Of a stretch of DNA of 64,000 nt, positions 22,204-44,558 are shown one piece after another. The notes beneath the pieces are model-generated. The model was not told the DNA's origin. It searched no databases and saw only the letters and a list, made by a program, of their open reading frames with translations. The stretch comes from Candidatus Latescibacterota bacterium (lineage in GTDB: Bacteria; Latescibacterota; UBA2968). Numbering within the stretch: position 1 is the stretch's first letter; each line of letters opens with the position of its first letter. The stretch lies in NCBI GenBank assembly GCA_965220765.1, contig OZ244847.1, forward strand, positions 3,200,699-3,264,698, read 5' to 3'. The translations under genes were made by a program, and so were the position numbers.

Positions 22204-22204
22204 T

Positions 22205-24577: not shown

Positions 24578-26353
24578 ATGAATTACATTTATTGCCTAAA
24601 GGTCCTCTTTGCCAGATTGAGGACCTGTTTTATACTGATCGCTCTGATAGCTGTTGTGCCGGCTCATGGGGAAACTTTATCTGATGACCCCATTGTGAGA
24701 TGGCTGCACATTTCGGGGCATCAAGCGATTTGGGGAGGAGAACTGAAAGCGTTGATGGTCACGCACGCCTCGCCGTGGTACGATTTTTTGCCCCTGGTCC
24801 ATGCGCGCAGATACGATCCTTTGACTCTTGTATCTGATCTGGAAAAATTGCGAGCATATTACCGCGATCGGGGATATTTGGCAGTATCGGTGCATTCGAC
24901 CGTTGAGCAACTTAGCGCAGATGAGATTGGGCTGGAAATACATATTGCAGAGGGACCTTTGACGCGGATTTCCAGGGTGTCAGTAATCGGCGGTGAAGAT
25001 ATCGAGAACGCTTTTGGACAGCTCGATGGCAAGCCGCTATCGAGCGATCTCGTGAACAAGGGCGTGTCACAGGTCGTAAGCGAGTTGCGGAACAAAGGCT
25101 ATGCGTTTGCGCGTGCTGAGGTCGAGACGACGACTGTCGGGCAACAGGCCGAACTCGTTCTAAAACTTGTACCTGGCCCTGTATGTAGCGTGGGCGTTGT
25201 GCAAATATCGGGGCACAAAGCCATGGCGGAAAATACCATCTTGCGCGGTCTCACATTTAAGGCGGGCGATCAATTTAGCGAAGAGGCATTACAAAACAGC
25301 CAGTACCTGCTCTATCGTGCGGGCGTGTTTCGGTCTGTGGCGTTGGGATTGGCAGATAGCGTGGCGCACGACAACCGGGTGGATGTAGCTTTGCGCGTGT
25401 CCGAACGCCCTTTTCGCACGTTGCGCGTGGGCACGGGATACGACACGGATGAAGACTTGTGGGCCTCGGGCGCGTGGACGCATCGCAATTTTGGGGGAGA
25501 CTTCCGTCAGTTTAAGCTGTCTGGACGCGTTTCAGGAAAGAACAGAGAAGCGGTTATCGGCCTGCGGCAGGCGCATTTCAGGGGCAGTCGCAATTGGCTG
25601 AATATCGGTGGGTTTGTACAGCGTGAACGGCAGGCGACATTTGTCCAAGAAGAGCTGGGGAGCAATATATCTCTCGAGAGAAATCTTACGAGGGCCACAG
25701 ATGTAATCGCTCAGTTCAGCAGTGGCGTGGTAGATTTTTCAGCCGATAGCGCGTTTGCCGAAATGAAGGTTGGATTGCTCATGGACACGCGCGACGATAT
25801 TTTTGATCCGCAATCGGGGATGCTCGCACAATTCACCCTGCGCGAACGCGGGCGATTTCTCCGGTCCGATGGCGAATTTTTGCAGGCGACGGCAGAGGGG
25901 CGATGGTTCCACCGCATGCCTTTGCGAAGTGTGCTGGCACTGCGCGTGCAGGGCGGTATAATTTTTGAACTGGGCAAGGCGGGCGGCGTGCCCAATGTCG
26001 AGCGGTTTTTTGCAGGAGGACTCAATAGTGTGAGAGGATGGGGATTGGATGAATTGGGCCCCAAAAACCATCAGGGCGAGCCAACGGGCGGTTTGAGCCG
26101 TATGGAAATGAGCATGGAGATTAGAACGCAGATATTTTTTTCGATAGGTACAGCCGTTTTTGTAGATGTGGGCAATGTCGATGCGAAATCGGGGGCGTTT
26201 AACCCCGAATCGCTCAAGTACGCTGTAGGCGCAGGGCTTCGGTATTTGAGTCCGGTTGGCCCTGTGAGATTTGATGTGGGATACCGCTTGTCAGATGATA
26301 GTACTGTGGAGAAACGCATTCAGTATCACATCAGTTTGGGACAGGCGTTTTGA
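24578..26353 (+). CDS. tamA: Omp85-family outer membrane protein, TamA-like (translocation and assembly module)
   Basis: Signal peptide, POTRA-like repeats, and a C-terminal 16-strand barrel domain ending in an aromatic residue. 591 aa and directly followed by a TamB-like gene. Confidence 0.7.
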   Translation: MNYIYCLKVLFARLRTCFILIALIAVVPAHGETLSDDPIVRWLHISGHQAIWGGELKALMVTHASPWYDFLPLVHARRYDPLTLVSDLEKLRAYYRDRGYLAVSVHSTVEQLSADEIGLEIHIAEGPLTRISRVSVIGGEDIENAFGQLDGKPLSSDLVNKGVSQVVSELRNKGYAFARAEVETTTVGQQAELVLKLVPGPVCSVGVVQISGHKAMAENTILRGLTFKAGDQFSEEALQNSQYLLYRAGVFRSVALGLADSVAHDNRVDVALRVSERPFRTLRVGTGYDTDEDLWASGAWTHRNFGGDFRQFKLSGRVSGKNREAVIGLRQAHFRGSRNWLNIGGFVQRERQATFVQEELGSNISLERNLTRATDVIAQFSSGVVDFSADSAFAEMKVGLLMDTRDDIFDPQSGMLAQFTLRERGRFLRSDGEFLQATAEGRWFHRMPLRSVLALRVQGGIIFELGKAGGVPNVERFFAGGLNSVRGWGLDELGPKNHQGEPTGGLSRMEMSMEIRTQIFFSIGTAVFVDVGNVDAKSGAFNPESLKYAVGAGLRYLSPVGPVRFDVGYRLSDDSTVEKRIQYHISLGQAF

Positions 26354-26409
26354 ATCCACAGGTATGCCCCTGTGAAAACAGGGATGAACGCAGATAAGGA
26401 CTATTTAAC

Positions 26410-29400
26410 ATGAACAGGCGAGCGAAATCAATAATCTGGATTCTGGTCGGCGCTGGCATTCTGCTGTCAATAGGGGCGATACTCGTCACGGGGGGCTATG
26501 CCAATGGCATTTTGCGCGATTTGGCGCAGCGCGCCCTGTCCCGGCAAGGGGATGAGGTCGGTCTGATTGGTGAGATTCAGGGCAATCCGCTGGGTGATTG
26601 TCGCATCGTTGATGTGCAGATCGGAGATAGGGCGCGGGTGGATACGCTCGATGTGACGTACAGTTTTTGGAACCTGCTTACAGGAAAAGTTGTGATTCAT
26701 CGGCTGCGGTTGTCGGGAATCGAGATGCGACTTGATGCTTCTGATGAAGAGACCGAGACGTCGATATGGGATGCTCCTCCCCCCCTGGATTTAGATATCG
26801 AGTCGCTGGAGATTGCGGATGCCAATGTCCTGGTTGATGGTACACAGGTGCGCGATATCGCGATAGAGGGTGCTATTTTCGCGGGAGAATCTGAGTATCG
26901 TTTGATCCTGGAGCGTTTTCGTTCGGTGCAATTCGATCCGCCACTGGAGGTGACCAATCTATCTGGTATTGCCATTTTACAGGCCGGTCACTTGCGACTG
27001 AACGACGTGGCGTTGCACACTCACGGCTCTCGCATTTTGCTGCGCGGCAGGGTTTGGCAATTGGATAATCCCGAGGTGGATCTCGTAGTGGAAGCCGATT
27101 CTCTATGGCTGGCAGATCTCAGGCCCCTGATCGATCTACCCACACGCACTATGCAGATGCGTGGAAGAGTGAAAGGTAGCCTGCAATCCCTTGTTACAGA
27201 ATTAGTTGTGAAAGATAAAGAAGCTTCAATTGCGTTTAATGGCGTCATGGGGATTGCGCCGTTTACAGTGCGGGGAGATGCGATTTTTGAGATCGAGACC
27301 AATGATCTCATCTCGTTGGGATACACAGGATCTGATACTGATTTACCCCGTATCAGTACAAGCCTGGACGGGGTGATTTCTTTCGCAGTGGATTCCTCTG
27401 GCGTGGAGAGTGCCATTGCCAAGGGTGTTTTTCGGCGGGTGCAGTTTGGAGATGCGCGATTCGATTCCGTGCGTTTTGCCGTCAATTTGGCAAATGACCT
27501 GTTGCAAACGCAAGTCACCGCTAATGGACCAAGTGGCAATATAGTGGGCAATGGAGAAGCGCGGTTGACCACCTGGAATGGCGAATGGGAAATGCGATTT
27601 CGCGATCTATATGCTAATCATTTACCCGGTGTACCCAAAAAAGTCGGGCGGACGACGGGGCGTATTGATGGTGCGAGATATGTAGATCAACGGTTTTTTA
27701 TCGATCATTTTGAGACACAATTACAGGATTGGGGAACGCGCGTCAATGGAAATGGGCAATTGCATTTTGAAGGAGACAAACCGGCTATTGCGGGGAATAT
27801 CCAGGCGGAGGTCGCGTTACCTCGTTTGACAGACACAGACAGGTGGGGGACATTGCTGACTCTTGAGGGCAATGTAAATGGCATCTCGGGTGGCGATTTG
27901 ACTGTTGAATTGGCGGGGAATATTGCGGGGAATGCTGCGGCAGACAGTTTTAGCGTTTCTGCGCTGGTCAATTCTGAAGGGAGGTCTGATATTCGCGCTG
28001 GTCTGTCGGGCACAGGTGGAGTATTTTCCGCTCAGGGGCATATTGATCGGCATTCTGAGGGCCAATGGCGAATGGATGTACAGGATTTAGAGGCGATAGG
28101 TGAGGTGATTGATGTGGATTTATCGGGGACGTTGGATCTATCGGGCACCTGGTCGGGGACGCTGGATGCGCCCGGTTTTTCTGCACAAGGTGGCGCGGAT
28201 AGCCTTGTGGTTGAGGGTATTCCGCTTCAAAATGTTGCAATTGAGACTCAATGGACGCGCCCAGATTCGGGAGCTATTAACCTGCAAGTGGATCGCTTGA
28301 CCTGGGGTGAACGGGCGTTGCAGGCGGTTTTTTTTAATGCTATGTACAATCGTGGCGAGACATCATTTTTGTTAGGTAGCGGCGAGCAGGTAGATAACCA
28401 TGTGCTTTTTCGGGGGCGCGCAGGGCAAGAAGAAGACCTATTCCAGGTGGCGATGGATTCGCTATACGTTAAGGTTGATCAGGTGGTGCTGCATAACGAG
28501 GGACCCGTGCAATTCGCGTATTCGTCATCTCGCGGCGTCCACATTGAACATCTGGTGCTTTCTGGGCCAGCGGGGCGTCTGGTCGCGCGGGATCAACAGG
28601 GCTTTCAGGCGACCGTAGAGGTGTTGTTGAAAGATCTGGACTTGCGGACCTGGGCATTTCTGGCGGGTGCTTCAGATATGGGGGGTATTCTCAATGGTGA
28701 AGTACTTTTTGCTGGCACATTGACCGATCCTCTTATTTTTATTCAATTCACTCTTGCAAAGGGCAAAATATCGAGCGTGGAGTTCGATAGTGCCACAGGA
28801 GAGATGTCTCTGGGCAATGATAGGATACATTTTGAGGTGAAAGTCGTACCTGATAGAGATGAAGCTCTGACACTGATTGGCAGTTTTCCCATTACAGGTA
28901 CAGGTGATATGCATCTACGCGCTCAGTCTGAGGGGATCGCGTTGAAGACACGCCAGAACACAGTGGATGAAAAAACGAAATTGGTCGGGCGAAAAATATC
29001 CGAGAGATTGAGATTTGGCACAGTGCCAAACGCGTTTTTCGATGTGGATGAGGGAATTTCTGGGATGTTATCTTTCGATCTGGAAGGACGCGGCCGTTTT
29101 GAGCAACCGGATATCCGAGGGGTAATCGAAATTCGAGATGGGACGTTCCACATGCCCGATCTACATCGGTCTTACACACCTGTTTCAGGGCGTGCTGTGT
29201 TTGGCGACGGGAAAATTCAGATTGACAGTCTTGCGATTGGGAATTCGGCGAATCTTTCTGGCGATATAACGCTTGAGGGTTTTTTGCCGATCAGATGGAA
29301 TTTATCTGCACAATTTCGCGATTTTGAACCGGTTGCTCGCCCCGAATTACAAATCGTAACAGATGGACAATTGCAGATTGAGGGAACGCCGCAGGGCAAC

Positions 29401-30276
29401 AATGTTAAGGGCAAGTTGGCGATGAAACAGGCTGAGATTCGCCTGGCGGAATTGCTTGGAGTACCGAGCCTGACGACGAAACAGGCAGATATTCGCTTGA
29501 CGGAATTGTTCGATGAATCGGGTACAGAGATGCCACCATTTCTGATGGCTCCGGAAATACGCCTGCAAGTGTCTGCTGACAGACAGGTGTGGTTGCGCGA
29601 CCCGGTCTTTGAGGTGGAAATTGGGGGTGATCTGGATATAATAAAAAATCGCGAAGATTCGCGTATTTACGGCGCGATGTCGAGCCGCCGGGGCAATTAC
29701 ATCTGGCAAAACCACCGCTTGCGTATTACACAGGGCGAGGTTCAATTTCAGGGCAGGCCCGACTGGAACCCCGATCTGGATATTCGCGCCGAGACGCGTG
29801 TGCGCGCTGTGGATACGGGGCCTGTCGATATTATTGTCACAGTGGGGGGGACATTGACATATCCGCAGATTTCGTTTGACAGCAGCGATCCGTCATTTGG
29901 AGGGGATGTGAGGGATATTGCATCTCTATTGTTGACTGGCAGACCCGCTGACCAATTTAAGTTTTCTCGCGAGCACACCCTGGATCTGTTTGCGGGGGTT
30001 GTTGCAAATCGCCTGGGGCGGCATATTGGGCAAAAATTACATCTGGATGTGGTGGAGATCGACTTTGGCGAGGGCAGTATCTCCAGGATTCGATTGGGCA
30101 AGTATATTGGAGACAGGTTATTCATGAGTTATGCAAAGGATATTTCGACCACGGCTTATGAAGCGGCAATGGAGTTTGAAGTATTGTCAGGGCTGACATT
30201 GGAAGCGAGTCAGATAGAAGAGGATAATCGACGCAGACGAGGATCGGTAGGGTTATTCTGGAAAAAAGAGTGGTGA
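26410..30276 (+). CDS. tamB: TamB-like translocation and assembly module protein (AsmA-like with DUF490 C-terminus)
   Basis: 1288 aa with an N-terminal TM anchor, long repetitive beta-rich periplasmic span, and a conserved DUF490-type C-terminus. Genomic pairing with tamA. Confidence 0.7.
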   Translation: MNRRAKSIIWILVGAGILLSIGAILVTGGYANGILRDLAQRALSRQGDEVGLIGEIQGNPLGDCRIVDVQIGDRARVDTLDVTYSFWNLLTGKVVIHRLRLSGIEMRLDASDEETETSIWDAPPPLDLDIESLEIADANVLVDGTQVRDIAIEGAIFAGESEYRLILERFRSVQFDPPLEVTNLSGIAILQAGHLRLNDVALHTHGSRILLRGRVWQLDNPEVDLVVEADSLWLADLRPLIDLPTRTMQMRGRVKGSLQSLVTELVVKDKEASIAFNGVMGIAPFTVRGDAIFEIETNDLISLGYTGSDTDLPRISTSLDGVISFAVDSSGVESAIAKGVFRRVQFGDARFDSVRFAVNLANDLLQTQVTANGPSGNIVGNGEARLTTWNGEWEMRFRDLYANHLPGVPKKVGRTTGRIDGARYVDQRFFIDHFETQLQDWGTRVNGNGQLHFEGDKPAIAGNIQAEVALPRLTDTDRWGTLLTLEGNVNGISGGDLTVELAGNIAGNAAADSFSVSALVNSEGRSDIRAGLSGTGGVFSAQGHIDRHSEGQWRMDVQDLEAIGEVIDVDLSGTLDLSGTWSGTLDAPGFSAQGGADSLVVEGIPLQNVAIETQWTRPDSGAINLQVDRLTWGERALQAVFFNAMYNRGETSFLLGSGEQVDNHVLFRGRAGQEEDLFQVAMDSLYVKVDQVVLHNEGPVQFAYSSSRGVHIEHLVLSGPAGRLVARDQQGFQATVEVLLKDLDLRTWAFLAGASDMGGILNGEVLFAGTLTDPLIFIQFTLAKGKISSVEFDSATGEMSLGNDRIHFEVKVVPDRDEALTLIGSFPITGTGDMHLRAQSEGIALKTRQNTVDEKTKLVGRKISERLRFGTVPNAFFDVDEGISGMLSFDLEGRGRFEQPDIRGVIEIRDGTFHMPDLHRSYTPVSGRAVFGDGKIQIDSLAIGNSANLSGDITLEGFLPIRWNLSAQFRDFEPVARPELQIVTDGQLQIEGTPQGNNVKGKLAMKQAEIRLAELLGVPSLTTKQADIRLTELFDESGTEMPPFLMAPEIRLQVSADRQVWLRDPVFEVEIGGDLDIIKNREDSRIYGAMSSRRGNYIWQNHRLRITQGEVQFQGRPDWNPDLDIRAETRVRAVDTGPVDIIVTVGGTLTYPQISFDSSDPSFGGDVRDIASLLLTGRPADQFKFSREHTLDLFAGVVANRLGRHIGQKLHLDVVEIDFGEGSISRIRLGKYIGDRLFMSYAKDISTTAYEAAMEFEVLSGLTLEASQIEEDNRRRRGSVGLFWKKEW

Positions 30277-30332: not shown

Positions 30333-30614
30333 ATGATCAGGACATTTAAGGATAAAGAGGCTGAAAAAATATTTAAGGGTCATTTTTCCAAAAAATTGCC
30401 ACAGAATATTCAGCACATTGCTGAACGCAAATTGATTTTACTTCACCAATCGACAAATTTAAACGATTTGCGTGTACCACCATCTAATCGTTTAGAGGCT
30501 TTGAAAGGCAATCGAAGAGGACAGCACAGTATTCGCATAAATGATCAGTGGCGAATTTGTTTTGAATGGAATGAGGATGGTGTTTATGCTGTTGAAATCG
30601 TCGATTATCATTGA
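30333..30614 (+). CDS. higB: HigB-family type II toxin (RelE/ParE superfamily, plasmid-maintenance killer type)
   Basis: 93 aa MIRTFKDKEAEKIFKG...RLEALKGNRRGQHSIRINDQWRICFEW matches the HigB-like toxin consensus. Followed 9 nt later by the antitoxin. Confidence 0.8.
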   Translation: MIRTFKDKEAEKIFKGHFSKKLPQNIQHIAERKLILLHQSTNLNDLRVPPSNRLEALKGNRRGQHSIRINDQWRICFEWNEDGVYAVEIVDYH

Positions 30615-30623
30615 GGTGCTATT

Positions 30624-30920
30624 ATGAGAGACAGGCCCCCGATCCATCCTGGTGAGATTTTGCAAGAAGAATTTCTAAAGCCAATGGGAATCAGTTGCTA
30701 TCGTCTTGCTCGTGATATTTGCGTTTCTGAAATGAGAATCAATCAAATTATTCGCGGGGAAGAGGGTATTAGTGCAGATATAGCACTTCGACTTGCTCAT
30801 TATTTTGGCATGTCGGTTGAATTTTGGACAGGTATTCAAACACATTATGAAATAGAGAAAGCCAAAATGACACTGGCTGATCGAATAGAAAAAGAGGTCA
30901 AGATTTTTGCACCGGTATAG
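30624..30920 (+). CDS. higA: HigA-family antitoxin (XRE-type HTH)
   Basis: IHPGEILQEEFLKPMGIS...LARDICVSEMRINQIIRGEEGISADIALRLAHYFGMSVEFW is the canonical HigA HTH antidote protein. Confidence 0.8.
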   Translation: MRDRPPIHPGEILQEEFLKPMGISCYRLARDICVSEMRINQIIRGEEGISADIALRLAHYFGMSVEFWTGIQTHYEIEKAKMTLADRIEKEVKIFAPV

Positions 30921-30955
30921 TTGTGTAATGTGCTACAAGTATTGACAGAAAAAAA

Positions 30956-30991
30956 GAAGCTGCCTCCCGATATTTTTGGGGCGGCAGTTTT
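30956..30991. terminator. Bidirectional rho-independent terminator between the convergent higA and the asnB-like gene
   Basis: GCTGCCTCCC-loop-GGGGCGGCAG hairpin flanked by A-run and T-run. It abuts the TAA stop of the minus-strand gene. Confidence 0.55.
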
Positions 30992-32692
30992 TTATTTTAG
31001 GGTAATTTTTAATAGTTCAGCCACTTCTTCTGATGTGCGGTATTTGCCGTCAAAGAGTTGGATGAGATAGAGTTGGTAGGTCATGTAGCGCCCCAAAATG
31101 ATCGTGTGGTCTTCGCCTGCGAGGTGGCGTTGCCAGAGCTTGGAGGTGTTAGATGTGTTGTAGAGAAGATGGTCGCACAAATTTTTACCCGGCGATTGGC
31201 GCAACCAATTCGCGTAATCGGCAAAGGTCTGGGGCGCGGGATTGCGCAATCCGGTGAACCTCCGCAGGATTTTGACGGTCCAGGGTGAATGGGATATGGG
31301 AAGTCCCGTGGCCTGATAGGGAATATTTTTGAAATATTCTGGAAAGGTCTCGAGAAGCATCTGGCGGTAGAGGCGATTGTTGGCTTTTTGTTGTAGGGGA
31401 ATAGAATAGAGTAATTCCTGCACCTGATTGTCGAGGAATGGTAAGCGGTATTCAAGGCCGTGCAAAAGTCCCAGACGAGGGCCGTGCAGGGTGAACCCAC
31501 GCATGCGCCAATCTATGTAAAAAGCATGTGCCGATCCCGCATTGTTAAATGCGGTTTTGAGGTGTTGGGTCGTGTTGCGATCTACCCGAATGTGTAGCTC
31601 ATTTTTCAGGTATGCAGAGAATTTGTTGGAGGGAAATAGATGGCCTGCACCTGCTAACCCATCGCCTCCTGCTCCGTTGAGGAAAATATCACAGGCTTCT
31701 TTCTGTTGCTTGAGGTGTTCAATGCCGTGCATATGGAGCAGGTCGAGTGCGCCATCGGCATACCACACGCCTGAGATTCTCGGCAAGAGCCAATTTTGAT
31801 CATCCAAGGGCAGGACGGTATGTGGCGCGTTTTTTACGGATGCTGCCTGGGCAGCAATGCGAACATCCGCGCTGTCGGGATGACCGAATGTGAAGGTTCT
31901 GGGTGTGCGAGGCATGGCGGCGAGGATCGCACGCGAATCGAGGCCACCGCTGAGGGCGAGACCCGTTCGTCCTGTGGTTCTCTGTTCTACGGCAGTGCGA
32001 AAGCGCGCGCCCAATTCATGTGCCAATTCGCGCTGGGTGTGATGCCCTGTGAGGGGAGCAATATCATCCCAGGACCAGTAGCATTGCTGTGTAAGGCTAC
32101 CATCTGAGATGCGAAATGTCATTTGCGTTGCAGCGGGCACGGGCGCGACGCCTTCGAGCCATGTGCGATCAGAAGGCAATTGCCCGGTGGCGAAAAATAT
32201 GTCGCGAGAAATGGGGTCAATCACAGGTGAAAACTCGGGTAGCGCGAGAAATGCCTTGGTCTGAGACGCCCAGGCTATACGATTGCCCTGGCACGTCCAG
32301 TAGAGCGGGCGCAAGCCATAGCGATCGGTGATAATATGCAGTTCATTTTTTTGTGTATCGAAAATCACGCCGGAAAAAAGGCCATTAATGCGGTTTAATA
32401 GTTCGCGTCTATCCGCGACGATTTCAACTAAGAATTCAAGGTCGGAAGTAGCAGAGAGAGCCAGCGCGACGCGGTTGAAAAATTCGCCATCGAGATAAGC
32501 AATATGTCCCGATTGTGAATAAACTGGGGACACTGTACGCCAATCTGGCGCAAATGCGACGCCCGCAATGTGCGGGGCAAAGACGATGCGGTGCGCTTTT
32601 TGATGTACGACCAGGCTATCTGCCATGCGCGTGAGCGAGTGGGTGAGTTCACGGGAGGTAAGAGGCGATTGAGATATGAATCCGGCGAGCAT
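30992..32692 (-). CDS. Asparagine synthetase (AsnB) family protein lacking the N-terminal catalytic cysteine
   Basis: 566 aa with the PP-loop synthetase domain (LSGGLDSRAILAAM) and an Ntn-like N-domain. The N-terminus is MLAGF..., not MCGI. Confidence 0.7.
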   Translation of the reverse strand: MLAGFISQSPLTSRELTHSLTRMADSLVVHQKAHRIVFAPHIAGVAFAPDWRTVSPVYSQSGHIAYLDGEFFNRVALALSATSDLEFLVEIVADRRELLNRINGLFSGVIFDTQKNELHIITDRYGLRPLYWTCQGNRIAWASQTKAFLALPEFSPVIDPISRDIFFATGQLPSDRTWLEGVAPVPAATQMTFRISDGSLTQQCYWSWDDIAPLTGHHTQRELAHELGARFRTAVEQRTTGRTGLALSGGLDSRAILAAMPRTPRTFTFGHPDSADVRIAAQAASVKNAPHTVLPLDDQNWLLPRISGVWYADGALDLLHMHGIEHLKQQKEACDIFLNGAGGDGLAGAGHLFPSNKFSAYLKNELHIRVDRNTTQHLKTAFNNAGSAHAFYIDWRMRGFTLHGPRLGLLHGLEYRLPFLDNQVQELLYSIPLQQKANNRLYRQMLLETFPEYFKNIPYQATGLPISHSPWTVKILRRFTGLRNPAPQTFADYANWLRQSPGKNLCDHLLYNTSNTSKLWQRHLAGEDHTIILGRYMTYQLYLIQLFDGKYRTSEEVAELLKITLK

Positions 32693-32842
32693 GAAAGTGC
32701 CTATCTGAATACCGGTTGAAGTTCATCCGTGATTAGATGTAATCAATATAAGGAAAACTTCAGGATTTCCCTTTTCATTTTTCGTTTTTATTGGTACAAT
32801 AAAGCAGTTCTAATATCATCGCATTTAACCATAGAGGTCGGA

Positions 32843-34054
32843 ATGGCAGAAAAAAATTATAAGGTTCGCGCGGCGCATTGCAATTGGCGGGCGTCGGAGG
32901 AAGAAATATACCAGACGCTGCGCCGCATTACAGACCCATTGCATCGGTCGTGGGAAAAGCTGGAGAAAGCCAATCGGATTGTGATCAAGTTCAATATGAT
33001 GAAGCTACACAATCGCATTATTTACTACATGGGACGGCGGCGCGAGTTGGTCGATGACATGGTCGCACGCGCTGTGTTGCGTTTGTTGCGAGAACGCACC
33101 CGTGCGGAAATTATTGCGACGGATACCAATCCCTATACGCGCGACCATCTGATGGATGAAGATTTTAATTACGCACATATTTTGAAAGAATACGATGTGG
33201 GGTTTGTCGATTCAAACGCGCAACCGTTCAAACAGTATGACGTGCCGGGCGGTGGATGTATGTTTGACCGCTATACACTCAGCGCGTGTTTTGAAGGGGC
33301 AGAGGTGGTTTCTGTGGCAAAGATGAAGAATCATCTGTTTATGGGGATTACGCTTTGCATGAAAAATCTTTTTGGTCTGCCTCCAATCACGCTGCCACAC
33401 GGCCGCGTGCGATCCTATTATCACCACTTTATCCGCCTGTCTTACGTCTTGCCCGATTTGGGATTGATCACGCAACCTTGTCTGAATATTGTGGATGCAC
33501 TAACCGGGCAATGGGGGAGAGAATGGGGCGGACAGGGGCGTATCTGCAATGCGTTATTAGCAGGTGACCATGTAACCGCTACCGATGCATGTGGTACCCA
33601 TTTGATGGGTCACGACCCTGCGTCTGATTGGCCCAATCCGCCGTTTCGACGCGACCGCAACCATTTGCTGATTGCAGACAGGCGCGGTTTTGGTACGGTT
33701 GATCTGAGGGAGATTGATTTTGAGAGCGAGGTATCTGCGCCCCTATCCGAGTTTGATTCAGAGCGTACAGACAGCGAGGAAATTGTGGAAAGCTGGCGTC
33801 GCACCACCTGTGAGCAGGCATTGTTTTACCAGGACCGTCAGCGGGATATCGTTGACCGGTATCGGAATAAATTTATCTTTTTGCAAGATGGCGATGTGGT
33901 CTGGCACGGTGCAGATCCCGCCAATTTGGGTAGCCGCAGGCAGTTGAGCGGACAGAAAAAGGATCAGGGGATGTGGCTCAAGTTGGTCGATCCCGAAGAA
34001 ACTGAAGGCGAACGCTTTGAGACTTATGAGGCGTGTTTGAGGATGACGGGATAA
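32843..34054 (+). CDS. DUF362-family protein
   Basis: Motifs KMKNHLFMGITLCMKNLFG, IVDALTGQWGREWGGQG and ATDACGTHLMGHDP match the DUF362 consensus. The start is moved to the ATG at 32843 (GAGGT RBS) because the upstream in-frame extension looks non-coding. Confidence 0.55.
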   Translation: MAEKNYKVRAAHCNWRASEEEIYQTLRRITDPLHRSWEKLEKANRIVIKFNMMKLHNRIIYYMGRRRELVDDMVARAVLRLLRERTRAEIIATDTNPYTRDHLMDEDFNYAHILKEYDVGFVDSNAQPFKQYDVPGGGCMFDRYTLSACFEGAEVVSVAKMKNHLFMGITLCMKNLFGLPPITLPHGRVRSYYHHFIRLSYVLPDLGLITQPCLNIVDALTGQWGREWGGQGRICNALLAGDHVTATDACGTHLMGHDPASDWPNPPFRRDRNHLLIADRRGFGTVDLREIDFESEVSAPLSEFDSERTDSEEIVESWRRTTCEQALFYQDRQRDIVDRYRNKFIFLQDGDVVWHGADPANLGSRRQLSGQKKDQGMWLKLVDPEETEGERFETYEACLRMTG

Positions 34055-34079: not shown

Positions 34080-34802
34080 ATGGATATTTTGCGAACCGAT
34101 ACTGCCCATGTCTGGGCAGTGGATTTAGAGCGCGAGACACACATGTTGGCCCAGACGCTATCGGCAGATGAGTGGAGGCGTGCTGACAAGTTTGTCTATG
34201 AAAAGCACCGGGCGCATTTTGTTGCCGCACGCGGATGTCTGCGCGCGATTCTCGCAAAATACATGGATTGTAAGCCAGGTGAACTGGCTTTTTTTTATGG
34301 CGAACACGGCAAACCCGCTCTGGCACCTCCCTGGGATAAATCTCAGTTGCGATTTAACCTGAGCCATTCAGCTGGCCTGGCTCTTATCGCGGTTTCGATG
34401 CGCCATGAGATTGGGGTTGATGTTGAGCATCTCAGCCGCAAGGTCGGCCAGATGAAAGACATTGCGAAGCGTTTTTTCGCACCTGGCGAATACGAGCAGT
34501 TGTGCGCGTTGTCGCGAGAAGAACTGCGCCGGGCTTTTTTTTGTTGCTGGACGCGCAAAGAGGCATATCTGAAAGCCATGGGCGCTGGTCTTACCCATTC
34601 ATTAAAAAATTTTGAAGTGAGTTTGGGACGCAAAGCAGAATTGCTGTGGATAAAAGAAGGGAATACAGAAGATTGGACACTGCAACACCTTGAACCCGCG
34701 AAGGGGTATGTCGGCGCGGTGGCGATTGCGGGGAAAGATGTTGAGGTGAAGATAATGAAACACTTGTTGCGCGATCTTTGTCTGAATAAGGGTGTGAATT
34801 AG
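34080..34802 (+). CDS. 4'-phosphopantetheinyl transferase, Sfp/EntD type
   Basis: Two-lobed PPTase with motifs GKPAL, FNLSHS, and WTRKEAYLKAMG (W/FxxKEAxxK). 240 aa. Confidence 0.75.
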   Translation: MDILRTDTAHVWAVDLERETHMLAQTLSADEWRRADKFVYEKHRAHFVAARGCLRAILAKYMDCKPGELAFFYGEHGKPALAPPWDKSQLRFNLSHSAGLALIAVSMRHEIGVDVEHLSRKVGQMKDIAKRFFAPGEYEQLCALSREELRRAFFCCWTRKEAYLKAMGAGLTHSLKNFEVSLGRKAELLWIKEGNTEDWTLQHLEPAKGYVGAVAIAGKDVEVKIMKHLLRDLCLNKGVN

Positions 34803-34818: not shown

Positions 34819-37059
34819 ATGCAGGAGCAGATAATGGATCCTTTACTGGACAATGAACAAAACGGTAGTCTGAATTGGTTGAAACACGCTTTGCCCGAAG
34901 GGGAAGACGAACTCATTCGGGTACAGACCGATCTGGATGAAAAAGGTGACTTCGGAAACCAGTGGGTGGTGGTGACCCGCAATCGCGTGCTGGTGCGACA
35001 AAATGGCGCGATAGCAGATATTCCGATTTCCGAAATTGAACTGGCGCGAACCGAGGCTCTGGTGGGCGGTGCGCGTTTGGAAATACATCGAAAAAATAAG
35101 CCGACCGTGCATATTCCATATTCCATGACGCAGGCGCAAAAGTTTTCGGAGACTACGCGCGGGATTGAGCAACTGCGCAAGGGGCAGGAATTTTTTATTA
35201 ATGCAAATCTGGATCGCACAATCTGCGAATCGTGCGGTCGGCTATTGCCGGAAAAAAATGGGATATGTCCGGCCTGTTTAAACAAATTTGCAACACTGGG
35301 ACGCATTGCATCGTATTTGAAACCCTACAAGATACGCGCGATTGTGCTGGCACTGGCGTCTATTGTGACGACGGTTGCAGAATTGATTCCGCCTTATGTG
35401 ACAAAACTCATTGTCGATGATGTGTTGGTGCTGCCCGAGGGCGTAGAGGCGCTGTACGACGATCGGCTCAGTTTGCTCGGCTGGCTCGTGCTGGCTCTGG
35501 TGGGTATCCGGCTGATAACCTGGGGGGGAGAATGGGCGCACGGCTGGACAGTGACGTGGCTTTCCGCACGGGTGACTGCAGATATCCGCAGCCAGCTTTA
35601 CAGGTGTTTGGAGTTGCTATCCCTGCAATTTTACGACAAACGGCAAGTTGGCGCAGTTATGTCTCGCGTGACGACGGATAGCAGTCGTTTACAGATGTTT
35701 TTGGTCGATGGATTGCCCTATCTGGTGATCGAGGCGATGATGTTGCTGGGGATTCTCGCCGCGCTGTTTATGATGAGTTGGTCACTGGCTATTCTGGTGC
35801 TGATTCCCGTTCCGTTAATCATGATCTGGGGGTATGCGTTTTATCGGCGGATGCGGAAATTTTTTACCAGTTGGATGCAGTCGTGGTCTGACACTATGGC
35901 GCGGGTCAATGAAGCGCTCACGGGCATTCGCGTGGTGAAGGCATTTGCACAGGAAAAGCAGGAAATCAGGGTGTTCAAAAGGCGCAATGACAAATTGACG
36001 CGCATCGGTATTACGACAGAGGTCAACCGGGGCATTTTTTACAAAACGATGACCCTATTGACGGCGGCTGGCGTGATTATTGTATGGTATTATGGGGGGC
36101 TTGAGGTAATCGATGGGGAATTGACGCTCGGCACTTTGATGGCTTTTTACAGTTATATGATGTTGCTTTACGGCCCGCTGGAATGGTTTGGGATGGTCAA
36201 TTCGTGGATGACGCGTGCAATGGCCGGTGCAGAACGCATTTTTGAGATTATCGATACGCCTTCCGAAGCGTACCAGGACCCCAATGCCGTGCCGGTACCC
36301 GATATCGAAGGGCGCGTGAAGTTCGATGATGTCACATTTGGATACGACAAGAGCAAGCCCGTGTTGCACGAAATCAACCTCGAGGTCAAACCAGGAGAGA
36401 TGATCGGGCTGGTGGGAAAATCAGGCGTGGGCAAGACGACAACGGTAAATTTGATTTGTCGGTTCTACGATGTTGACCGCGGAAGCATTGAGGTGGATGG
36501 GGTGGATTTGCGCGATATTCGGCTGGAGGATTTGAGGTCTCAAATTGGCATTGTGTTGCAAGAGCCGTTTCTGTTTTCGGGCAGTATTGCGGAAAATATT
36601 GGCTATGGCAAGCCGGGCGCGACATTCGATGAGATTGTAGAAGCAGCCAAGACTGCCCATGCACACGACTTTATTGTGACAAAGCCCGATGGCTACGATA
36701 CGCTTATCGGCGAGCGCGGAGAATCGCTTTCGGGAGGCGAACGGCAGCGCGTGTCTATTGCACGAGCCATTTTACACGATCCCAGAATTTTGATCTTAGA
36801 CGAGGCCACATCGTCTGTTGATGTGCAAACTGAAAAGCGCATTCAAGATGCGGTTGCGCGATTGGTCAAAGGACGAACGACTTTTGCAATAGCCCATCGT
36901 TTATCCACCCTTCGCAATGCCGACCGGCTGGTGGTGATGGATGCCGGACGCATTGTGGAAATGGGAACGCACCGCGAATTGCTGGAAAAGAAAGGCATGT
37001 TTTACAAATTGGTGCAGATGCAAGAAGAGATTTCACAAATTATTGCAATTAAGGAATAG
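34819..37059 (+). CDS. ABC exporter (TMD-NBD half-transporter) with a ~160-aa N-terminal cytoplasmic extension
   Basis: Six-TM ABC_membrane domain and an NBD (Walker A GKSGVGKT, signature LSGGERQR, Walker B ILILDEATS). The N-terminal extension contains CESCGRLLPEKNGICPAC. Confidence 0.85.
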   Translation: MQEQIMDPLLDNEQNGSLNWLKHALPEGEDELIRVQTDLDEKGDFGNQWVVVTRNRVLVRQNGAIADIPISEIELARTEALVGGARLEIHRKNKPTVHIPYSMTQAQKFSETTRGIEQLRKGQEFFINANLDRTICESCGRLLPEKNGICPACLNKFATLGRIASYLKPYKIRAIVLALASIVTTVAELIPPYVTKLIVDDVLVLPEGVEALYDDRLSLLGWLVLALVGIRLITWGGEWAHGWTVTWLSARVTADIRSQLYRCLELLSLQFYDKRQVGAVMSRVTTDSSRLQMFLVDGLPYLVIEAMMLLGILAALFMMSWSLAILVLIPVPLIMIWGYAFYRRMRKFFTSWMQSWSDTMARVNEALTGIRVVKAFAQEKQEIRVFKRRNDKLTRIGITTEVNRGIFYKTMTLLTAAGVIIVWYYGGLEVIDGELTLGTLMAFYSYMMLLYGPLEWFGMVNSWMTRAMAGAERIFEIIDTPSEAYQDPNAVPVPDIEGRVKFDDVTFGYDKSKPVLHEINLEVKPGEMIGLVGKSGVGKTTTVNLICRFYDVDRGSIEVDGVDLRDIRLEDLRSQIGIVLQEPFLFSGSIAENIGYGKPGATFDEIVEAAKTAHAHDFIVTKPDGYDTLIGERGESLSGGERQRVSIARAILHDPRILILDEATSSVDVQTEKRIQDAVARLVKGRTTFAIAHRLSTLRNADRLVVMDAGRIVEMGTHRELLEKKGMFYKLVQMQEEISQIIAIKE

Positions 37060-37065
37060 GTTCTC

Positions 37066-39345
37066 ATGAATCACTTGCCCGGAAAACCGTTGATCGAAAA
37101 ACTCCCCCCATCCGTAGCAAAGAAGCTGCGTGCGGCAAAGCCCAATGGCGAGACCGTGCTGATGCAGGTGGCAACGGATCTGGACGAGTCCTTGAATTAC
37201 AACCCGCAGTGGGTGGTGGTGACTGATCAACAGGTGCTGGTAATTCCCGAATCGGGTGTGGATGGCACACAGTCGATAGCGATTGGCGATGTGGAAGACG
37301 TGAAAGTGGAAGAGCGCGTGGGGTTGGGTGCCATGGCGTTAACGCACAAAGCAGGACCTGGAATGCATGTACCTTATTCGCCATCTCTTACCGCTGTGTT
37401 TGCCGAAGTGGCAGATGGAATTAGGCAGTTGACGGATAATGAACCATTAACATTGCCCACAGAATTGGAGCAGACGCACTGCGAGCATTGTGGGCGTCGG
37501 TTGCCGGAAAAGAATGGTGTGTGTGCTGCGTGTTTGAAAAAGTGGCAGACGTTTCGGCGCATTGTGGGGTATATGGCCGCTTATCCCGTGCGTCTGGTCA
37601 TCACCATAGTCCTGACATTTGTCAGCGCTTTATTTACGCTGTTGCCACCCAAAATTACAGAGTATGTGATTGACGGTGTTTTGACAACGGGCTGGGATGC
37701 GGTTGAGATTCCATTTATCACATCAACGGATCGCCTTGATCGATTGGGACTGTTGATTTTAGGGCTTGTTATTATACGGCTGTTGATCTGGGGTGTCGAT
37801 GTGGTGATGGCGGCGTTGAGTCGGTCGTTGGGGTTGCGCGCTATCGGCGATTTGCGGGAAGATCTCTACCGCGCGTTTCAGATGGTGCCTGTTCGCTTTT
37901 ACGATCGGCGAAAAGTGGGTGCTCTGACGTCCCGCATGAATAATGATACGGACCGCATGGAAGTGATCATGACGTATGATTTTTATTATGTGTTTTCCAA
38001 CAGTTTGTTATTTGTCGGTATTTTGGGTTTTCTGGCGTGGATGAACTGGCAACTCACACTGTTTGTGATAGCACCTATACCGCTGATTGTGCTTGCCGGC
38101 ACACGGATATGGTACCGCATCATGACATTCTGGACGCAGTGGTCGGGAAAGTGGGGCAGGCTATCGGCACAGTTGAATGAGTCAATTCACGGTATTCGCG
38201 TTGTGAAGGCATTTGCACAGGAGGCAAAAGAGAGCGAGCGTTTTGACCAGTACAACGAAGACCTGCGCGATGTGGATACCCGGGGCGAACGGGCCTGGTT
38301 TGTTTTTTGGACTGTGACAAATCTGTTTATGAACGTCGGGGTGTTTTTTGTATGGTACTTCGGAGGAAAACAGATTCTGGGCGGTGAATTGACACTGGGT
38401 GCGTTAATCGCATTTATGAGTTATCTCTGGATGTTGTACCAACCATTGAGATGGTTTGGCGATTTTTACAGTTATATTTTGCGGGCATTTGCCGGCGCGC
38501 AGCGCGTGTTCGAGGTGATTGATTCCGAACCCGAGCCATACCAGAAACCCGATGCAGTGCGGCTGCCCAAAATTGAGGGTGGTTTGAAGTTCGAGTCCGT
38601 GTTCTTTGGTTATGATCCCGGCAAACCCGTGCTCAAGGGGGTTGATCTGGAAGTGAAGGCGGGCGAGATGATAGGACTTGTGGGCAAGTCCGGCGCTGGC
38701 AAGTCAACGCTTATCAATCTGATATGTCGATTCTACGACCCAGACCGCGGACAGTTGATGGTCGATGGCGTGCCGATGACCGATGTGAGTTTGCGCGATT
38801 TGCGATCCCAAATCGGAATGGTGCATCAGCAACCCTTTTTGTTTGACGGCACGATTGCCGAAAATATCGCCTATGGCAAACCAGACGCGACCTTTGACGA
38901 GGTAATGCGCGCCGCAATGGCAGCCGAAGCACACGAGTTTATTGTCAAGAAGCCCGATGGTTATGATATGCGGGTGGGGGAAAGCGGCGGGCGTCTGTCG
39001 GGCGGCGAAAAACAGCGGGTGTCTATTGCGCGGGCGATTTTGCACAATCCGCGGATTCTCATTCTCGACGAAGCCACTTCTTCACTGGATACACCAACCG
39101 AGAAAAAGATTCAAACAGCGATTGCACGTCTGGTTGAGGGACGCACGACATTTGCCATAGCACACCGTTTGTCAACGCTTCGCAGCGCGGATCGGCTCGT
39201 GGTGATGGATGAGGGCAATATCGCCGAAGTTGGTACGCATCAGGAGTTGATGGACCGGGAGGGTATTTTTTATCGCCTGGTCAGGACACAGCAAGAGACG
39301 ACGTTGGATATGTTTATGACTGCGGTGGGGGTAGAGTTGGAATAG
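37066..39345 (+). CDS. ABC exporter half-transporter, paralogous partner with the same N-terminal extension
   Basis: Same architecture as the upstream gene (Walker A GKSGAGKS, LSGGEKQR, ILILDEATS). N-terminal extension contains CEHCGRRLPEKNGVCAAC. Starts 7 nt after the first ABC gene, so likely a heterodimer. Confidence 0.85.
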   Translation: MNHLPGKPLIEKLPPSVAKKLRAAKPNGETVLMQVATDLDESLNYNPQWVVVTDQQVLVIPESGVDGTQSIAIGDVEDVKVEERVGLGAMALTHKAGPGMHVPYSPSLTAVFAEVADGIRQLTDNEPLTLPTELEQTHCEHCGRRLPEKNGVCAACLKKWQTFRRIVGYMAAYPVRLVITIVLTFVSALFTLLPPKITEYVIDGVLTTGWDAVEIPFITSTDRLDRLGLLILGLVIIRLLIWGVDVVMAALSRSLGLRAIGDLREDLYRAFQMVPVRFYDRRKVGALTSRMNNDTDRMEVIMTYDFYYVFSNSLLFVGILGFLAWMNWQLTLFVIAPIPLIVLAGTRIWYRIMTFWTQWSGKWGRLSAQLNESIHGIRVVKAFAQEAKESERFDQYNEDLRDVDTRGERAWFVFWTVTNLFMNVGVFFVWYFGGKQILGGELTLGALIAFMSYLWMLYQPLRWFGDFYSYILRAFAGAQRVFEVIDSEPEPYQKPDAVRLPKIEGGLKFESVFFGYDPGKPVLKGVDLEVKAGEMIGLVGKSGAGKSTLINLICRFYDPDRGQLMVDGVPMTDVSLRDLRSQIGMVHQQPFLFDGTIAENIAYGKPDATFDEVMRAAMAAEAHEFIVKKPDGYDMRVGESGGRLSGGEKQRVSIARAILHNPRILILDEATSSLDTPTEKKIQTAIARLVEGRTTFAIAHRLSTLRSADRLVVMDEGNIAEVGTHQELMDREGIFYRLVRTQQETTLDMFMTAVGVELE

Positions 39346-39368
39346 GGTAATTTTGATCGGAGATTTTG

Positions 39369-39938
39369 ATGGCTACGGATATGCTGGAGATGGAAGTCGA
39401 AGAGTTTGAAGAAAATACAGAGGAATGGAAGCCGATACCCATTGAGATGGTACATCCCGAATCGGTCGATCCGCGTAAGATCCGCCTGTTTAAGGAGCCA
39501 CAGTGGATTTTGCGGATGACGATTGAAGGAGATCGGTCCTATACCCGCGTGAAAGTGGTGCGGGCAGCACCTTTGACGGAACCGGACCGCTATTTTTGCA
39601 TTCTGGATATCAAGGACGAAGCGATCTGCCTGATCAAAGACCTGTCCGATTTGACAGAAGAGAGCCAGGTTCTGGTGCATGAGGAACTGGACAACCGGTA
39701 TTTGACGGCGGAGATCCAGAAGATCGTGGCATTGCAAAATGAATACGGGGTGACGTACTGGACTGTCGATACTGACCGGGGCAGGCGCGATTTTGTAGCC
39801 AAGTCCGTCGCTGAAAACGCGCAGTGGCTGGGAGAGACGCGGTTGATGATTTTTGATGTGGATAACAACCGCTTTGAGGTGCCCGATATAAGGGCGCTGG
39901 ACCGCCGCAGTCAGGGGTTGTTGGAATCGGTTGTGTGA
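39369..39938 (+). CDS. Hypothetical acidic cytoplasmic protein co-operonic with the ABC pair
   Basis: 190 aa, Glu/Asp-rich N-terminus, GGAGA RBS, 20 nt after ABC-2. No recognisable motifs, though it may correspond to a DUF family found with ABC exporters. Confidence 0.45.
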   Translation: MATDMLEMEVEEFEENTEEWKPIPIEMVHPESVDPRKIRLFKEPQWILRMTIEGDRSYTRVKVVRAAPLTEPDRYFCILDIKDEAICLIKDLSDLTEESQVLVHEELDNRYLTAEIQKIVALQNEYGVTYWTVDTDRGRRDFVAKSVAENAQWLGETRLMIFDVDNNRFEVPDIRALDRRSQGLLESVV

Positions 39939-40090: not shown

Positions 40091-41845
40091 ATGCGAAAGA
40101 AAATAGGTCGAATTTTGGCGTGGATTGGTGGGATTACGGTTGGGCTGGTCGTCCTGATCATCTTGTCAGTTGTATTGTTCTCCGGCGAAGATCCCGTGCC
40201 CGATCAGGTAATTCTGGAGATCAATCTGGAGCAGGGGATTGCGGAGTATGTGCCCGAAGATCCGTTTGCAAAATTGATCGCAGACGAAACGCGCTCGCTG
40301 CGCGATGTAATAGGTGCTTTAGACGCGGCGGCTTCAGATGACCGCGTTGTGGGATTGCTGGCTCGTGGGGGCGGCGCGCCGATGGGCTTTGCACAGGCAC
40401 AAGAAATAAGAGATGCGGTTCTGGCTTTTGGAAAAAGCGGAAAACCCACCGCGATTTTTGCCGAGACATTTGGCGAATTTGGATCGGGAAATATCGGATA
40501 TTATCTGGCGACGGCATTTGAGCGCATCTATCTCCAGCCCTCGGGCGATGTGGGTTTGATGGGACTGGCGATGGAGCATCCCTTTGTCAGGGGAACATTG
40601 GATTCGCTTGGGATTGGGGTGCAAATGGATCACCGGTATGAATATAAAAATGCAATGAACCTATATACCGAAACCAAATTTACAGACGCGCATCGCGAGG
40701 CGAGTGAAGCACTTTTAAAGTCGATGGTCGATCAGATGGTCCTGGGTATTTCTCGGGCGCGGGGTACAACGCCCGAAGCTGTCCGCGACCTCATCAATCG
40801 CGGGCCTTTTTTGGCATTATCTGCCCATGCCGAAGGCCTGATAGATAGCCTGGCGTATTGGGATGAAGTACGCGATCTGGTGAAGCGCGAGCATGGCGAA
40901 GATTCCAAATGGTTGGATATAAAAAATTATCTCAAGCGTAGCGATGAAAAGCCATATAGTGAAGGTACAAAGGTGGCGTTGATATACGGCGTGGGACCTG
41001 TGCTTCGCGGGAAGAGTGCCTACGATCCCTTATATGGGTCTGCTACAATGGGCGCGAGTACCCTGACCAGTGCTTTTCGCGATGCAGTAAAGGATAAGGA
41101 TGTGCGTGCAATCCTGTTTCGAATAGACTCTCCCGGTGGGTCTTACGTTGCTTCTGATGCGATCTGGCGCGAGGTTGCCAAAGCGAAGAAGGCGGGCAAA
41201 CCCGTGATTGTATCAATGGGCAATGTGGCCGGTTCTGGAGGATATTTTGTGGCGATGAATGCCGATAAGATTGTGGCGCAACCCGGTAGCATCACGGGAT
41301 CCATTGGGGTATTAGCGGGAAAGTTCGTGACAACTGAATTTTGGAAACGCCTGGGCATTACCTGGGATACGGCGCAGGTGGGTGAAAACGCGCTGATATG
41401 GGGCACGGGTGCAGAATTTACACCCGAACAATGGGCGAAATTTCAGACGTGGTTAGATCGCATTTACGAAGATTTTACAGCAAAGGTGGGCGAGGGGCGC
41501 GACATGTCACAGGCTGATGTCCACGCTGTGGCAAAGGGGCGAATCTGGACTGGGGAGGACGCCAAAGCGCATGGCCTGATCGATGAATTGGGCGGCTTGA
41601 AGACCGCGATGCGTCTGATTCGGGAGGCATTGGAATTGGAAGCTGATGAATCTCTCAACCTCGTGGTATTTCCGAAAGAAAAGACGCTGATAGAACAGGT
41701 GATGGAAAAAGGCCTGATCCGCACGCTGAGCAATGGCGATGAGTTGGTAAGACTCGCCGCAGAATTGCAACCCGTTTTTCGCTTTGCGCGCACAGTGGGG
41801 CAACCACGACAGGTTTTGGAGATGACACCCATGAATATTCGGTAA
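40091..41845 (+). CDS. sppA: Signal peptide peptidase SppA (protease IV, 67K type)
   Basis: N-terminal TM anchor and two ClpP/crotonase-like repeats with the catalytic-region motif SMGNVAGSGGYFVAM. Confidence 0.85.
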   Translation: MRKKIGRILAWIGGITVGLVVLIILSVVLFSGEDPVPDQVILEINLEQGIAEYVPEDPFAKLIADETRSLRDVIGALDAAASDDRVVGLLARGGGAPMGFAQAQEIRDAVLAFGKSGKPTAIFAETFGEFGSGNIGYYLATAFERIYLQPSGDVGLMGLAMEHPFVRGTLDSLGIGVQMDHRYEYKNAMNLYTETKFTDAHREASEALLKSMVDQMVLGISRARGTTPEAVRDLINRGPFLALSAHAEGLIDSLAYWDEVRDLVKREHGEDSKWLDIKNYLKRSDEKPYSEGTKVALIYGVGPVLRGKSAYDPLYGSATMGASTLTSAFRDAVKDKDVRAILFRIDSPGGSYVASDAIWREVAKAKKAGKPVIVSMGNVAGSGGYFVAMNADKIVAQPGSITGSIGVLAGKFVTTEFWKRLGITWDTAQVGENALIWGTGAEFTPEQWAKFQTWLDRIYEDFTAKVGEGRDMSQADVHAVAKGRIWTGEDAKAHGLIDELGGLKTAMRLIREALELEADESLNLVVFPKEKTLIEQVMEKGLIRTLSNGDELVRLAAELQPVFRFARTVGQPRQVLEMTPMNIR

Positions 41846-44556: not shown

Positions 44557-44558
44557 TC

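Follow-up and report, generated by a model that had tools for sequence, protein, structure and literature searches.

The window considered here, a stretch of 64,000 nucleotides (64 kb) of contig OZ244847.1 from a Candidatus Latescibacterota bacterium, carries on its reverse strand a gene for a protein of 566 amino acids which resembles the asparagine synthetase AsnB but is devoid of the cysteine nucleophile with which class-II glutamine amidotransferases begin. Beyond its 3' end, and convergent with it, are the genes of a TamA-like Omp85 protein, of TamB and of a HigB/HigA toxin-antitoxin pair, while on its 5' side a divergent operon runs from a DUF362 gene through those of a 4'-phosphopantetheinyl transferase (PPTase), two ATP-binding cassette (ABC) exporter half-transporters, a DUF1854 protein and SppA (Table 1). 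The divergent arrangement, with positions 32693-32842 between the two units, had been described in an original prediction made from the letters of the stretch, and is confirmed with the DUF362 start placed at ATG 32843. This is the likely true start, as the ATG is conserved and orthologues of 403-405 amino acids are found in four loci; the mechanical open reading frame (ORF) call places it at GTG 32729, a mere 36 nt away from that of the AsnB-like gene.

The AsnB-like gene is real and conserved in this uncultured Latescibacterota bacterium. Its translation opens MLAGFISQS and, as originally reported, no Cys-bearing start is available upstream: an in-frame stop is met 11 codons away from ATG 32692, with no ATG, GTG or TTG between them. 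The MLAGF start is common to 26 protein clusters (83-92% identity) and 15 genome loci, and the N-terminus reads ML(A/V)GF or MIAGF in all 47 sequences of this clade, so that the predicted lack of the nucleophile extends to the whole of it. The closest genome match is 95% identical, and every close match is a Candidatus Latescibacterota metagenome-assembled genome. The sequence just 5' of the ATG differs in length by 1-3 nt among genomes, and these upstream bases are therefore regarded as non-coding. Within the gene, first, second and third codon positions show identities to the window sequence of 0.92, 0.95 and 0.78, respectively, and the ratio of nonsynonymous to synonymous substitution rates (dN/dS) takes values of 0.17 for the whole gene, 0.20 for the N-domain and 0.155 for the synthetase domain. 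Since close homologues share the start and dN/dS is 0.17, the missing cysteine is not a sequencing or frameshift artefact. The possibility, raised with the original prediction, that an artefact hides a Cys start or that orthologues carry the residue is ruled out by the shared starts across the 47 sequences, the non-coding upstream DNA and the purifying selection. A hairpin and U-run resembling an intrinsic terminator come directly after the stop codon; the same hairpin also sits 3' of higA when read on the plus strand.

Table 1. Features of the AsnB-like gene, of its protein and of the neighbouring genes, with their positions in the window.
Feature	Position	Strand	Evidence or remark
Gene of the Cys-less AsnB-like protein, 566 aa, ATG start	30992..32692	-	Stop codon 30992-30994
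N-terminal domain of N-terminal nucleophile (Ntn)/GATase-like type, residues 1-205, predicted glutaminase-dead	32078..32692	-	Alignment; dN/dS 0.20
Equivalent of AsnB Cys1: no window residue			Position deleted (MLAGF vs MPGLxGF or MCGIxG)
Equivalent of AsnB Arg49: Ala46			Lost
Equivalent of AsnB N74-G75-E76: D68-G69-E70	32483..32491	-	Oxyanion-hole Asn now Asp; Glu76 retained as Glu70
Equivalent of AsnB Asp98: Asp84			Retained
PP-loop ATP-pyrophosphatase (synthetase) domain, residues 206-470	31283..32077	-	Pfam, Foldseek
PP-loop S248-G-G-L-D-S253 (AsnB 234-239)	31934..31951	-	S, G, G, D, S invariant in 174/174 classified sequences
H320-M-H322-G, in place of AsnB T322/R324 in the acyl-substrate site	31724..31735	-	1CT9 alignment, family table
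N339-G-A-G-G-D-G345, matching AsnB S346-G-E348-G-S-D351-E	31658..31678	-	1CT9 alignment, family table
Equivalent of AsnB Glu348: Ala341			Across the family A, F or Y; no acidic residue among the commonest ones
Equivalent of AsnB Asp351: Asp344			Retained
Family-specific C-terminal helical region, residues 471-566, ending LT(F/Y)E(L/I)(W/Y)L(Q/R)Q(V/L)F	30995..31282	-	Alignment, model
Intrinsic-terminator-like hairpin and U-run, directly 3' of the stop	30947..30987	-	-13.3 kcal/mol, z = -2.06
TamA-like Omp85 protein and TamB, genes convergent with that of the AsnB-like protein	24578..30276	+	TamB the most constant neighbour
HigB/HigA toxin-antitoxin, between tamB and the AsnB-like gene	30333..30920	+	In 5/18 closely related loci
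Divergent intergenic region, 150 nt, presumably with promoters or operators	32693..32842	.	Conserved across 13 genomes
DUF362 protein, 403 aa, first gene of the divergent operon	32843..34054	+	Absent from its position in 3/18 closely related loci
Sfp/HetI-type PPTase	34080..34802	+	NF042922 219.5 bits vs cut-off 370
Pair of MsbA-like ABC exporter half-transporters of 746 and 759 aa, both extended N-terminally by ~160 aa	34819..39345	+	NF052233 671 and 595 bits vs cut-off 880
DUF1854 protein, usual partner of this ABC type	39366..39938	+	Domain matches; bioRxiv 10.1101/072470
SppA (peptidase S49)	40091..41845	+	3' of DUF1854 in 9 of the related loci examined

The protein is matched by Pfam Asn_synthase at residues 229-450 (61.7 bits) and by GATase_7 through the C-terminal two thirds of that model only, at residues 78-150, while the top NCBIfam match is the generic asn_synth_AEB (TIGR01536), whose cut-off of 267.1 bits is not reached (123.7 bits). 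An AlphaFold2 model based on a 27-sequence alignment was confident, with a mean predicted local distance difference test (pLDDT) score of 91 and a predicted template modelling score (pTM) of 0.90, and in Foldseek searches against the PDB the best matches were TsnB9, beta-lactam synthetase, E. coli AsnB, human ASNS and carbapenam synthetase (CarA), with E-values from 1e-24 to 1e-16. The confident model and these matches point to a complete two-domain AsnB fold. In order to place the active-site residues, the protein was aligned by profile hidden Markov model (HMM) with 1CT9, whose chain numbering reproduces R49, N74, G75, E76, D98 and the PP-loop 234-239. The active-site table holds 184 aligned sequences, of which 174 were sorted into four classes, namely 172 family members and two Cys-type paralogues.

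The glutaminase site is predicted from these alignments to be dead, so that the protein should be unable to use glutamine in the usual way: besides the nucleophile, two of the four equivalents of the glutamine pocket (Arg49, Asn74, Glu76 and Asp98) are lost in the window protein. The adenylation machinery, on the other hand, appears to be preserved. The SGGLDSRAI stretch cited in the original prediction for the AsnB C-terminal PP-loop domain is intact at residues 248-256, within the Asn_synthase match, and its L251 is invariant within the 27-sequence alignment. H320, D313, R396, R398, R416, D421 and Y442 are likewise invariant, or nearly so, in the family. The acyl-substrate site does not look like that of asparagine synthetase, as the equivalents of AsnB T322 and R324 are His in most family members. 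The presence of A341, H320 and H322 at the positions of E348, T322 and R324 argues against an asparagine synthetase. Architecture, PP-loop SGGLDS, DRxG.xPLY and E.R.PFLD are otherwise shared with E. coli AsnB and human ASNS, from which the window protein differs, in addition to the missing Cys1 and the replacements of R49, N74, E348, T322 and R324, by its C-terminal helical region and by its TIGR01536 score.

By its sequence, the window protein is a derived branch within a large family that is uncharacterised. Searching 5.8 billion proteins gave 272 matches, and among 185,579 species genomes at least 357 matching stretches could be confirmed; the phmmer E-values of family matches range from 1e-85 to 0. 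Below about 52% identity essentially all matches open MPG(L/I)xG(F/L), which corresponds to the class-II amidotransferase start MCG(I/V)xG with Pro in the place of Cys. Cultured organisms with MPG-type relatives include Desulfoluna limicola ASN36 (L037), Marinobacterium sp. MBR-109 (L076), Zarconia navalis LEGE 11467 (L030) and Trichodesmium erythraeum IMS101 (L056). Among 109 distant members, 99 have Pro as residue 2 (examples are loci L024-L085, such as L037:9839-11611, L076:9815-11563 and L030:9143-10978, and proteins P0047-P0120), and in the pocket of the same 109 the equivalents of Arg49, Glu76 and Asp98 are kept in 81, 108 and 80 sequences, the Asn74 position being Asp or Glu in 105. The picture is mixed for Pro2 as a catalytic residue co-evolving with the glutamine pocket: it persists in 34 sequences from which the Arg49 equivalent has gone, and it may therefore be structural.

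An alignment of 27 family sequences (33-73% identity) contains 37 invariant columns, and the window protein displays the family motifs LDGE, DRYGLRPLYW, LSGGLDSRAI, NWL.PR..GVW.(T/A)DG..(D/N)..HMHG, NGAGGDG and RLPFLDN as well as the C-terminal one given in Table 1. The M-P-G N-terminus, by contrast, is not found in the window clade, where Pro-Gly is deleted in the 47 sequences, whereas the sister clade has it. In a neighbour-joining tree rooted on the Cys-type paralogues, the MLAGF clade is nested inside MPG-type sequences and its sister is a Latescibacterota clade with an MPGL start from which the Arg49 equivalent is already gone; this nested position implies that the Pro-Gly deletion was a late, derived event. 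None of ten diverse proteins tested, five of them MPG-type, reached an NCBIfam cut-off, and no curated model was found for the family, while the two Cys-bearing paralogues from these loci score as normal amidotransferases. In the literature searched for Cys-less AsnB in polysaccharide loci or for AsnB with an N-terminal Pro, no description was found.

The genomic context of the relatives was examined by calling ORFs in the best 80 loci (species-representative genomes), in five contig loci and in the central region of the window, after which the neighbour genes were clustered all-against-all and the recurrent clusters annotated. The distant members lie in polysaccharide loci, and their recurrent neighbours are a Wzx-type flippase (Polysacc_synt_3; 24 loci), a GT4 glycosyltransferase (20 loci), a DegT aminotransferase (17), a methyltransferase (13), an NAD-dependent epimerase/dehydratase (10) and a hexapeptide acetyltransferase (7), followed by FemAB/GNAT-like proteins, GT2, Wzy, UDP-sugar dehydrogenase, UDP-GlcNAc 2-epimerase and sugar N-formyltransferase. 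Of the 57 distant loci for which a gene was called, 21 have Wzx as the adjoining upstream gene in the same orientation (L031, L033, L036-L038, L042, L043, L045, L047, L052, L059, L062, L066, L072, L074, L076-L079, L082, L083), the gap being -43 to +12 nt in 19 of the 21. This pattern spans Thermodesulfobacteriota, Acidobacteriota, Planctomycetota, Omnitrophota, Bacillota, Gammaproteobacteria, Balneolales, Actinomycetota, Chloroflexota and Latescibacterota, among others, and in cyanobacterial relatives a HepA-family ABC exporter with GT4 is the neighbour in place of Wzx. Some loci hold an MPG-type gene together with a canonical MCGI-type gene for an AsnB/WbpS-like amidotransferase (L040:6291-8351, L061:1615-3507), and this sharing of loci suggests that the two types are non-redundant.

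The order DegT-(acetyltransferase)-Wzx-AsnB-like seen in distant loci is the porR(wbpE)-porS(wzx)-PGN_1234 order of Porphyromonas gingivalis, in which the linking sugar no longer occurred in its uronamide form once the AsnB homologue WbpS (PGN_1234) had been deleted (PMC7468200). With the WbpS/WbqG/PGN_1234 group (TIGR03108, eps_aminotran_1) the window protein thus shares the AsnB fold, its distant relatives share the DegT(wbpE)-wzx-asnB-like locus position (PMC7468200), and the expected chemistry would be, by analogy, the same ATP-dependent amidation of a sugar carboxylate. TIGR03108, however, aligns from an MCG start and its members are presumably glutamine-dependent, whereas the window protein is without the Cys and lies outside a polysaccharide locus; it scores 89.5 bits, and the family proteins tested 83-138 bits, against a cut-off of 816.9. 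The best structural match and sole full-length (1-453) profile match is the hydroxyamidotransferase TsnB9 (PDB 7YLZ), which, as proposed for the window protein, moves a nitrogen group onto a carboxylate other than that of aspartate, but which retains the MCG nucleophile in the alignment and belongs to a polyketide pathway. Beta-lactam and carbapenam synthetases (Foldseek E about 1e-21 to 1e-15) are likewise of Cys-less AsnB fold and use the adenylating domain only; they differ in forming a lactam intramolecularly and in sitting in clavulanate or carbapenem clusters, a context absent from the window, and are 14-18% identical to the window protein.

In the window lineage, the gene order is pyruvate kinase, TamA, TamB, (HigBA), AsnB-like, DUF362, PPTase, ABC, ABC, DUF1854 and SppA, as found in 18 closely related loci (68-95% identity, window included) and in L023 (46%). 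Apparently same-contig protein pairs (P0034/P0126, P0044/P0142 and P0045/P0129) suggest the same linkage at 44-63% identity. HigBA is a variable insertion at the tamB/AsnB-like junction, and by sequence no solved relative of the DUF362 protein was found. None of the 12 chromosome-level genomes with the window gene type recurs among the best 80 loci of the 357 confirmed matches, and within the same best 80 the Latescibacterota genomes with a polysaccharide-locus copy show no tamB-locus copy; such single copies per genome are consistent with relocation rather than duplication. Region 32693-32842 is 87% identical across 13 genomes, compared to 78% at third codon positions. It gave no Rfam match at E <= 1 and its RNA fold was not significant (z = -1.1), and a riboswitch or leader was rejected on these grounds. 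As to the shared regulator sites for which a check had been suggested with the original prediction, nothing was found beyond sigma-70-like consensus matches, and these were no more frequent than in shuffled sequence. The region probably carries promoter or operator sequence common to both units. A Pfam scan of the whole 64-kb window (ORFs of at least 150 aa together with HigB and HigA) found no glycosyltransferase, flippase, sugar-nucleotide gene, cphA, carrier protein or other ligase.

Further away in the window, at 21085-22834, the gene of a 372-aa AAA_15/AAA_21 ATPase precedes that of a DUF3226 protein of 209 aa; this two-gene module, present in some related loci only, looks like an anti-phage defence pair. 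An operon at 42906-46665 encodes an ABC ATPase, an ABC-2 permease, an ABC_transp_aux/DUF7088 protein and a DUF4340 protein, and resembles the gliding-motility GldA/F/G type. At 61122-62135 lies a radical SAM protein gene with a DUF3641 C-terminal domain, adjoining those of PGI-like and DUF547 proteins.

Taken together, these results are best explained, with a probability of roughly 0.55, by a glutamine-independent, ATP-dependent enzyme of AsnB fold that amidates or ligates a carboxylate, probably on an envelope glycoconjugate. Considerably safer is the narrower statement that the enzyme forms amides through adenylation, does not depend on glutamine and is neither AsnB nor a lasso cyclase. Of the original prediction, the AsnB-family protein with an intact PP-loop adenylation domain and without the N-terminal Cys, different from an ordinary AsnB, is borne out, and an ATP-dependent amide-forming enzyme is the most plausible reading. 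The protein would bind ATP and adenylate a carboxylate other than that of aspartate, and the acyl-AMP would then be resolved by free ammonia or by an amine to yield an amide. By analogy with the relatives and with WbpS, the carboxylate would most likely be carried by a cell-envelope glycoconjugate precursor, for instance as a uronic acid, in a reaction parallel to uronamide formation of the WbpS type though without glutamine hydrolysis. In the window lineage the gene would be monocistronic, with its own terminator, and a conserved divergent control region would serve both it and the DUF362-PPTase-ABC-ABC-DUF1854-SppA operon. The two units may be co-regulated, and a shared pathway would be hypothetical.

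Several points weigh against a glycoconjugate-amidating enzyme. Since neither the neighbourhood of the gene nor the rest of the 64 kb contains a glycosyltransferase, flippase or sugar-nucleotide gene, the glycan inference is borrowed from relatives that share 30-45% identity with the window protein. This lineage has changed its context and its N-domain residues and may have acquired a new substrate, and with the Glu348 equivalent replaced, adenylation could follow an altered chemistry or be less effective. The conserved divergent region and the old PPTase-ABC adjacency could also indicate another, carrier- or exporter-dependent pathway.

Three other identities for the protein were weighed against the same data. 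An ordinary asparagine synthetase working with ammonia only is very improbable. The generic asn_synth_AEB is indeed the best NCBIfam match, and the C1A mutant of AsnB, which is the protein of structure 1CT9, keeps ammonia-dependent activity; but the score on that model is less than half of the cut-off, Ala, His and His occupy the Glu348, Thr322 and Arg324 positions across the family, and family members are embedded in polysaccharide loci. The dead N-domain site and the replacement of several AsnB catalytic positions would be compatible with a non-catalytic pseudoenzyme acting as scaffold or regulator, which is nonetheless quite improbable given a PP-loop and about 35 other positions invariant across phyla and given the dN/dS of the synthetase domain. 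Least credible is a cyclase for lasso-peptide or other ribosomally synthesised and post-translationally modified peptide (RiPP) macrolactams, paired with an ABC exporter. Lasso cyclases of the McjC type (NF033535) share the AsnB fold, lack glutaminase activity and often lie beside ABC exporters, as are also present here, and the protein had been called lasso-cyclase-like. That label is not supported: NF033535 gives 66.8 bits against a cut-off of 525, aligned over residues 101-257 only, and the macrolactam model NF033561 65 bits against 300, whereas a true Cys-type amidotransferase paralogue reaches 183 bits on NF033535, implying that the lasso similarity of the window protein is generic. In keeping with the original prediction, the Pfam scan revealed no transglutaminase-like B protein or PqqD/RiPP recognition element (RRE), and the three gaps examined near the gene, where the largest intergenic gaps measure 145-152 nt, contain only small ORFs that are implausible as precursors. 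As the ABC proteins are moreover of the DUF1854-associated and not of the McjD type, and the relatives sit in polysaccharide loci, a lasso or RiPP role is ruled out by the HMM scores, by the missing B protein, RRE and precursor and by the lack of intergenic space.

A functional partnership with the adjoining operon, already put forward in the original prediction, is unlikely. Here the product of the enzyme, such as a polymer of amide-linked amino acids or an acyl compound bound to a lipid or carrier, would be exported by ABC-ABC-DUF1854 and the PPTase would serve a carrier protein. The divergent adjacency found in 18/18 closely related loci and in L023, lineage-wide down to about 44-46% identity, together with the protein pairs mentioned above and an intergenic region better conserved than third codon positions, is in its favour. 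From cofitness with cphA and cphA', Price et al. proposed that such DUF1854-ABC systems export the amino-acid polymer made by CphA-like ligases (bioRxiv 10.1101/072470), and the window ABC pair and DUF1854 protein resemble the NCBIfam 'cyanophycin metabolism-associated' models, below their cut-offs. AsnB chemistry natively activates the Asp side-chain carboxylate, and with the exporter proposal a connection to an amide ligase becomes conceivable. Other observations speak against a partnership. The ABC-ABC-DUF1854 trio occurs in three genomes without an AsnB-like gene or PPTase and among unrelated neighbours (DUF1854 54-67% identity). In L021 (68% identity) the AsnB-like gene stays by tamB while DUF362-PPTase lies about 7 kb off and the ABC genes are gone from the locus, and DUF362 is missing from its position in 3 closely related loci. 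DUF1854 evolves much more slowly than the AsnB-like protein (86% vs 71% in one genome); no carrier protein, cphA or other ligase accompanies them in the window; synteny in one lineage can be inherited gene order; and the wider family is tied to Wzx-type polysaccharide loci instead. The divergent arrangement is kept in the lineage, and the exporter link drawn from this synteny is weak or unproven, a hypothesis and not a finding. As regards the trio itself (window 34819-39938), it recurs as an autonomous three-gene unit, with DUF1854 54-95% identical across many genomes.

A more far-reaching proposal, and a distinctly improbable one as a whole, would see in the family an undescribed use of the Ntn amidotransferase domain, in which a strongly conserved N-terminal Pro replaces the Cys, the pocket is mostly kept (Arg49, Glu76, Asp98), the oxyanion Asn has become Asp or Glu and the gene is tightly coupled to glycan flippase genes; taken as a whole, these features would point to a novel route by which nitrogen or an amino acid reaches sugar carboxylates. 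The window lineage would then have neofunctionalised with loss of the N-domain function, maybe through recruitment to DUF1854-ABC export, and would perhaps modify an amide-linked polymer or an envelope lipid.

Cys-less enzymes of AsnB fold are a recurring source of unusual amide-bond chemistry, as in beta-lactams, carbapenems and lasso peptides, and the window gene is a variant among such amide-forming enzymes, to be annotated neither as asparagine synthase nor as lasso cyclase. The more interesting result is a collateral one, namely the MPG-type family with its N-terminal Pro, its partly kept amino-acid pocket and its flippase coupling, which spans many phyla while lacking both a curated model and a description in the literature searched. 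Its coupling to polysaccharide flippase genes in most lineages suggests that the family probably decorates cell-surface glycans, and its substrate, once known, would sharpen the prediction of O-antigen and exopolysaccharide structures from genomes.

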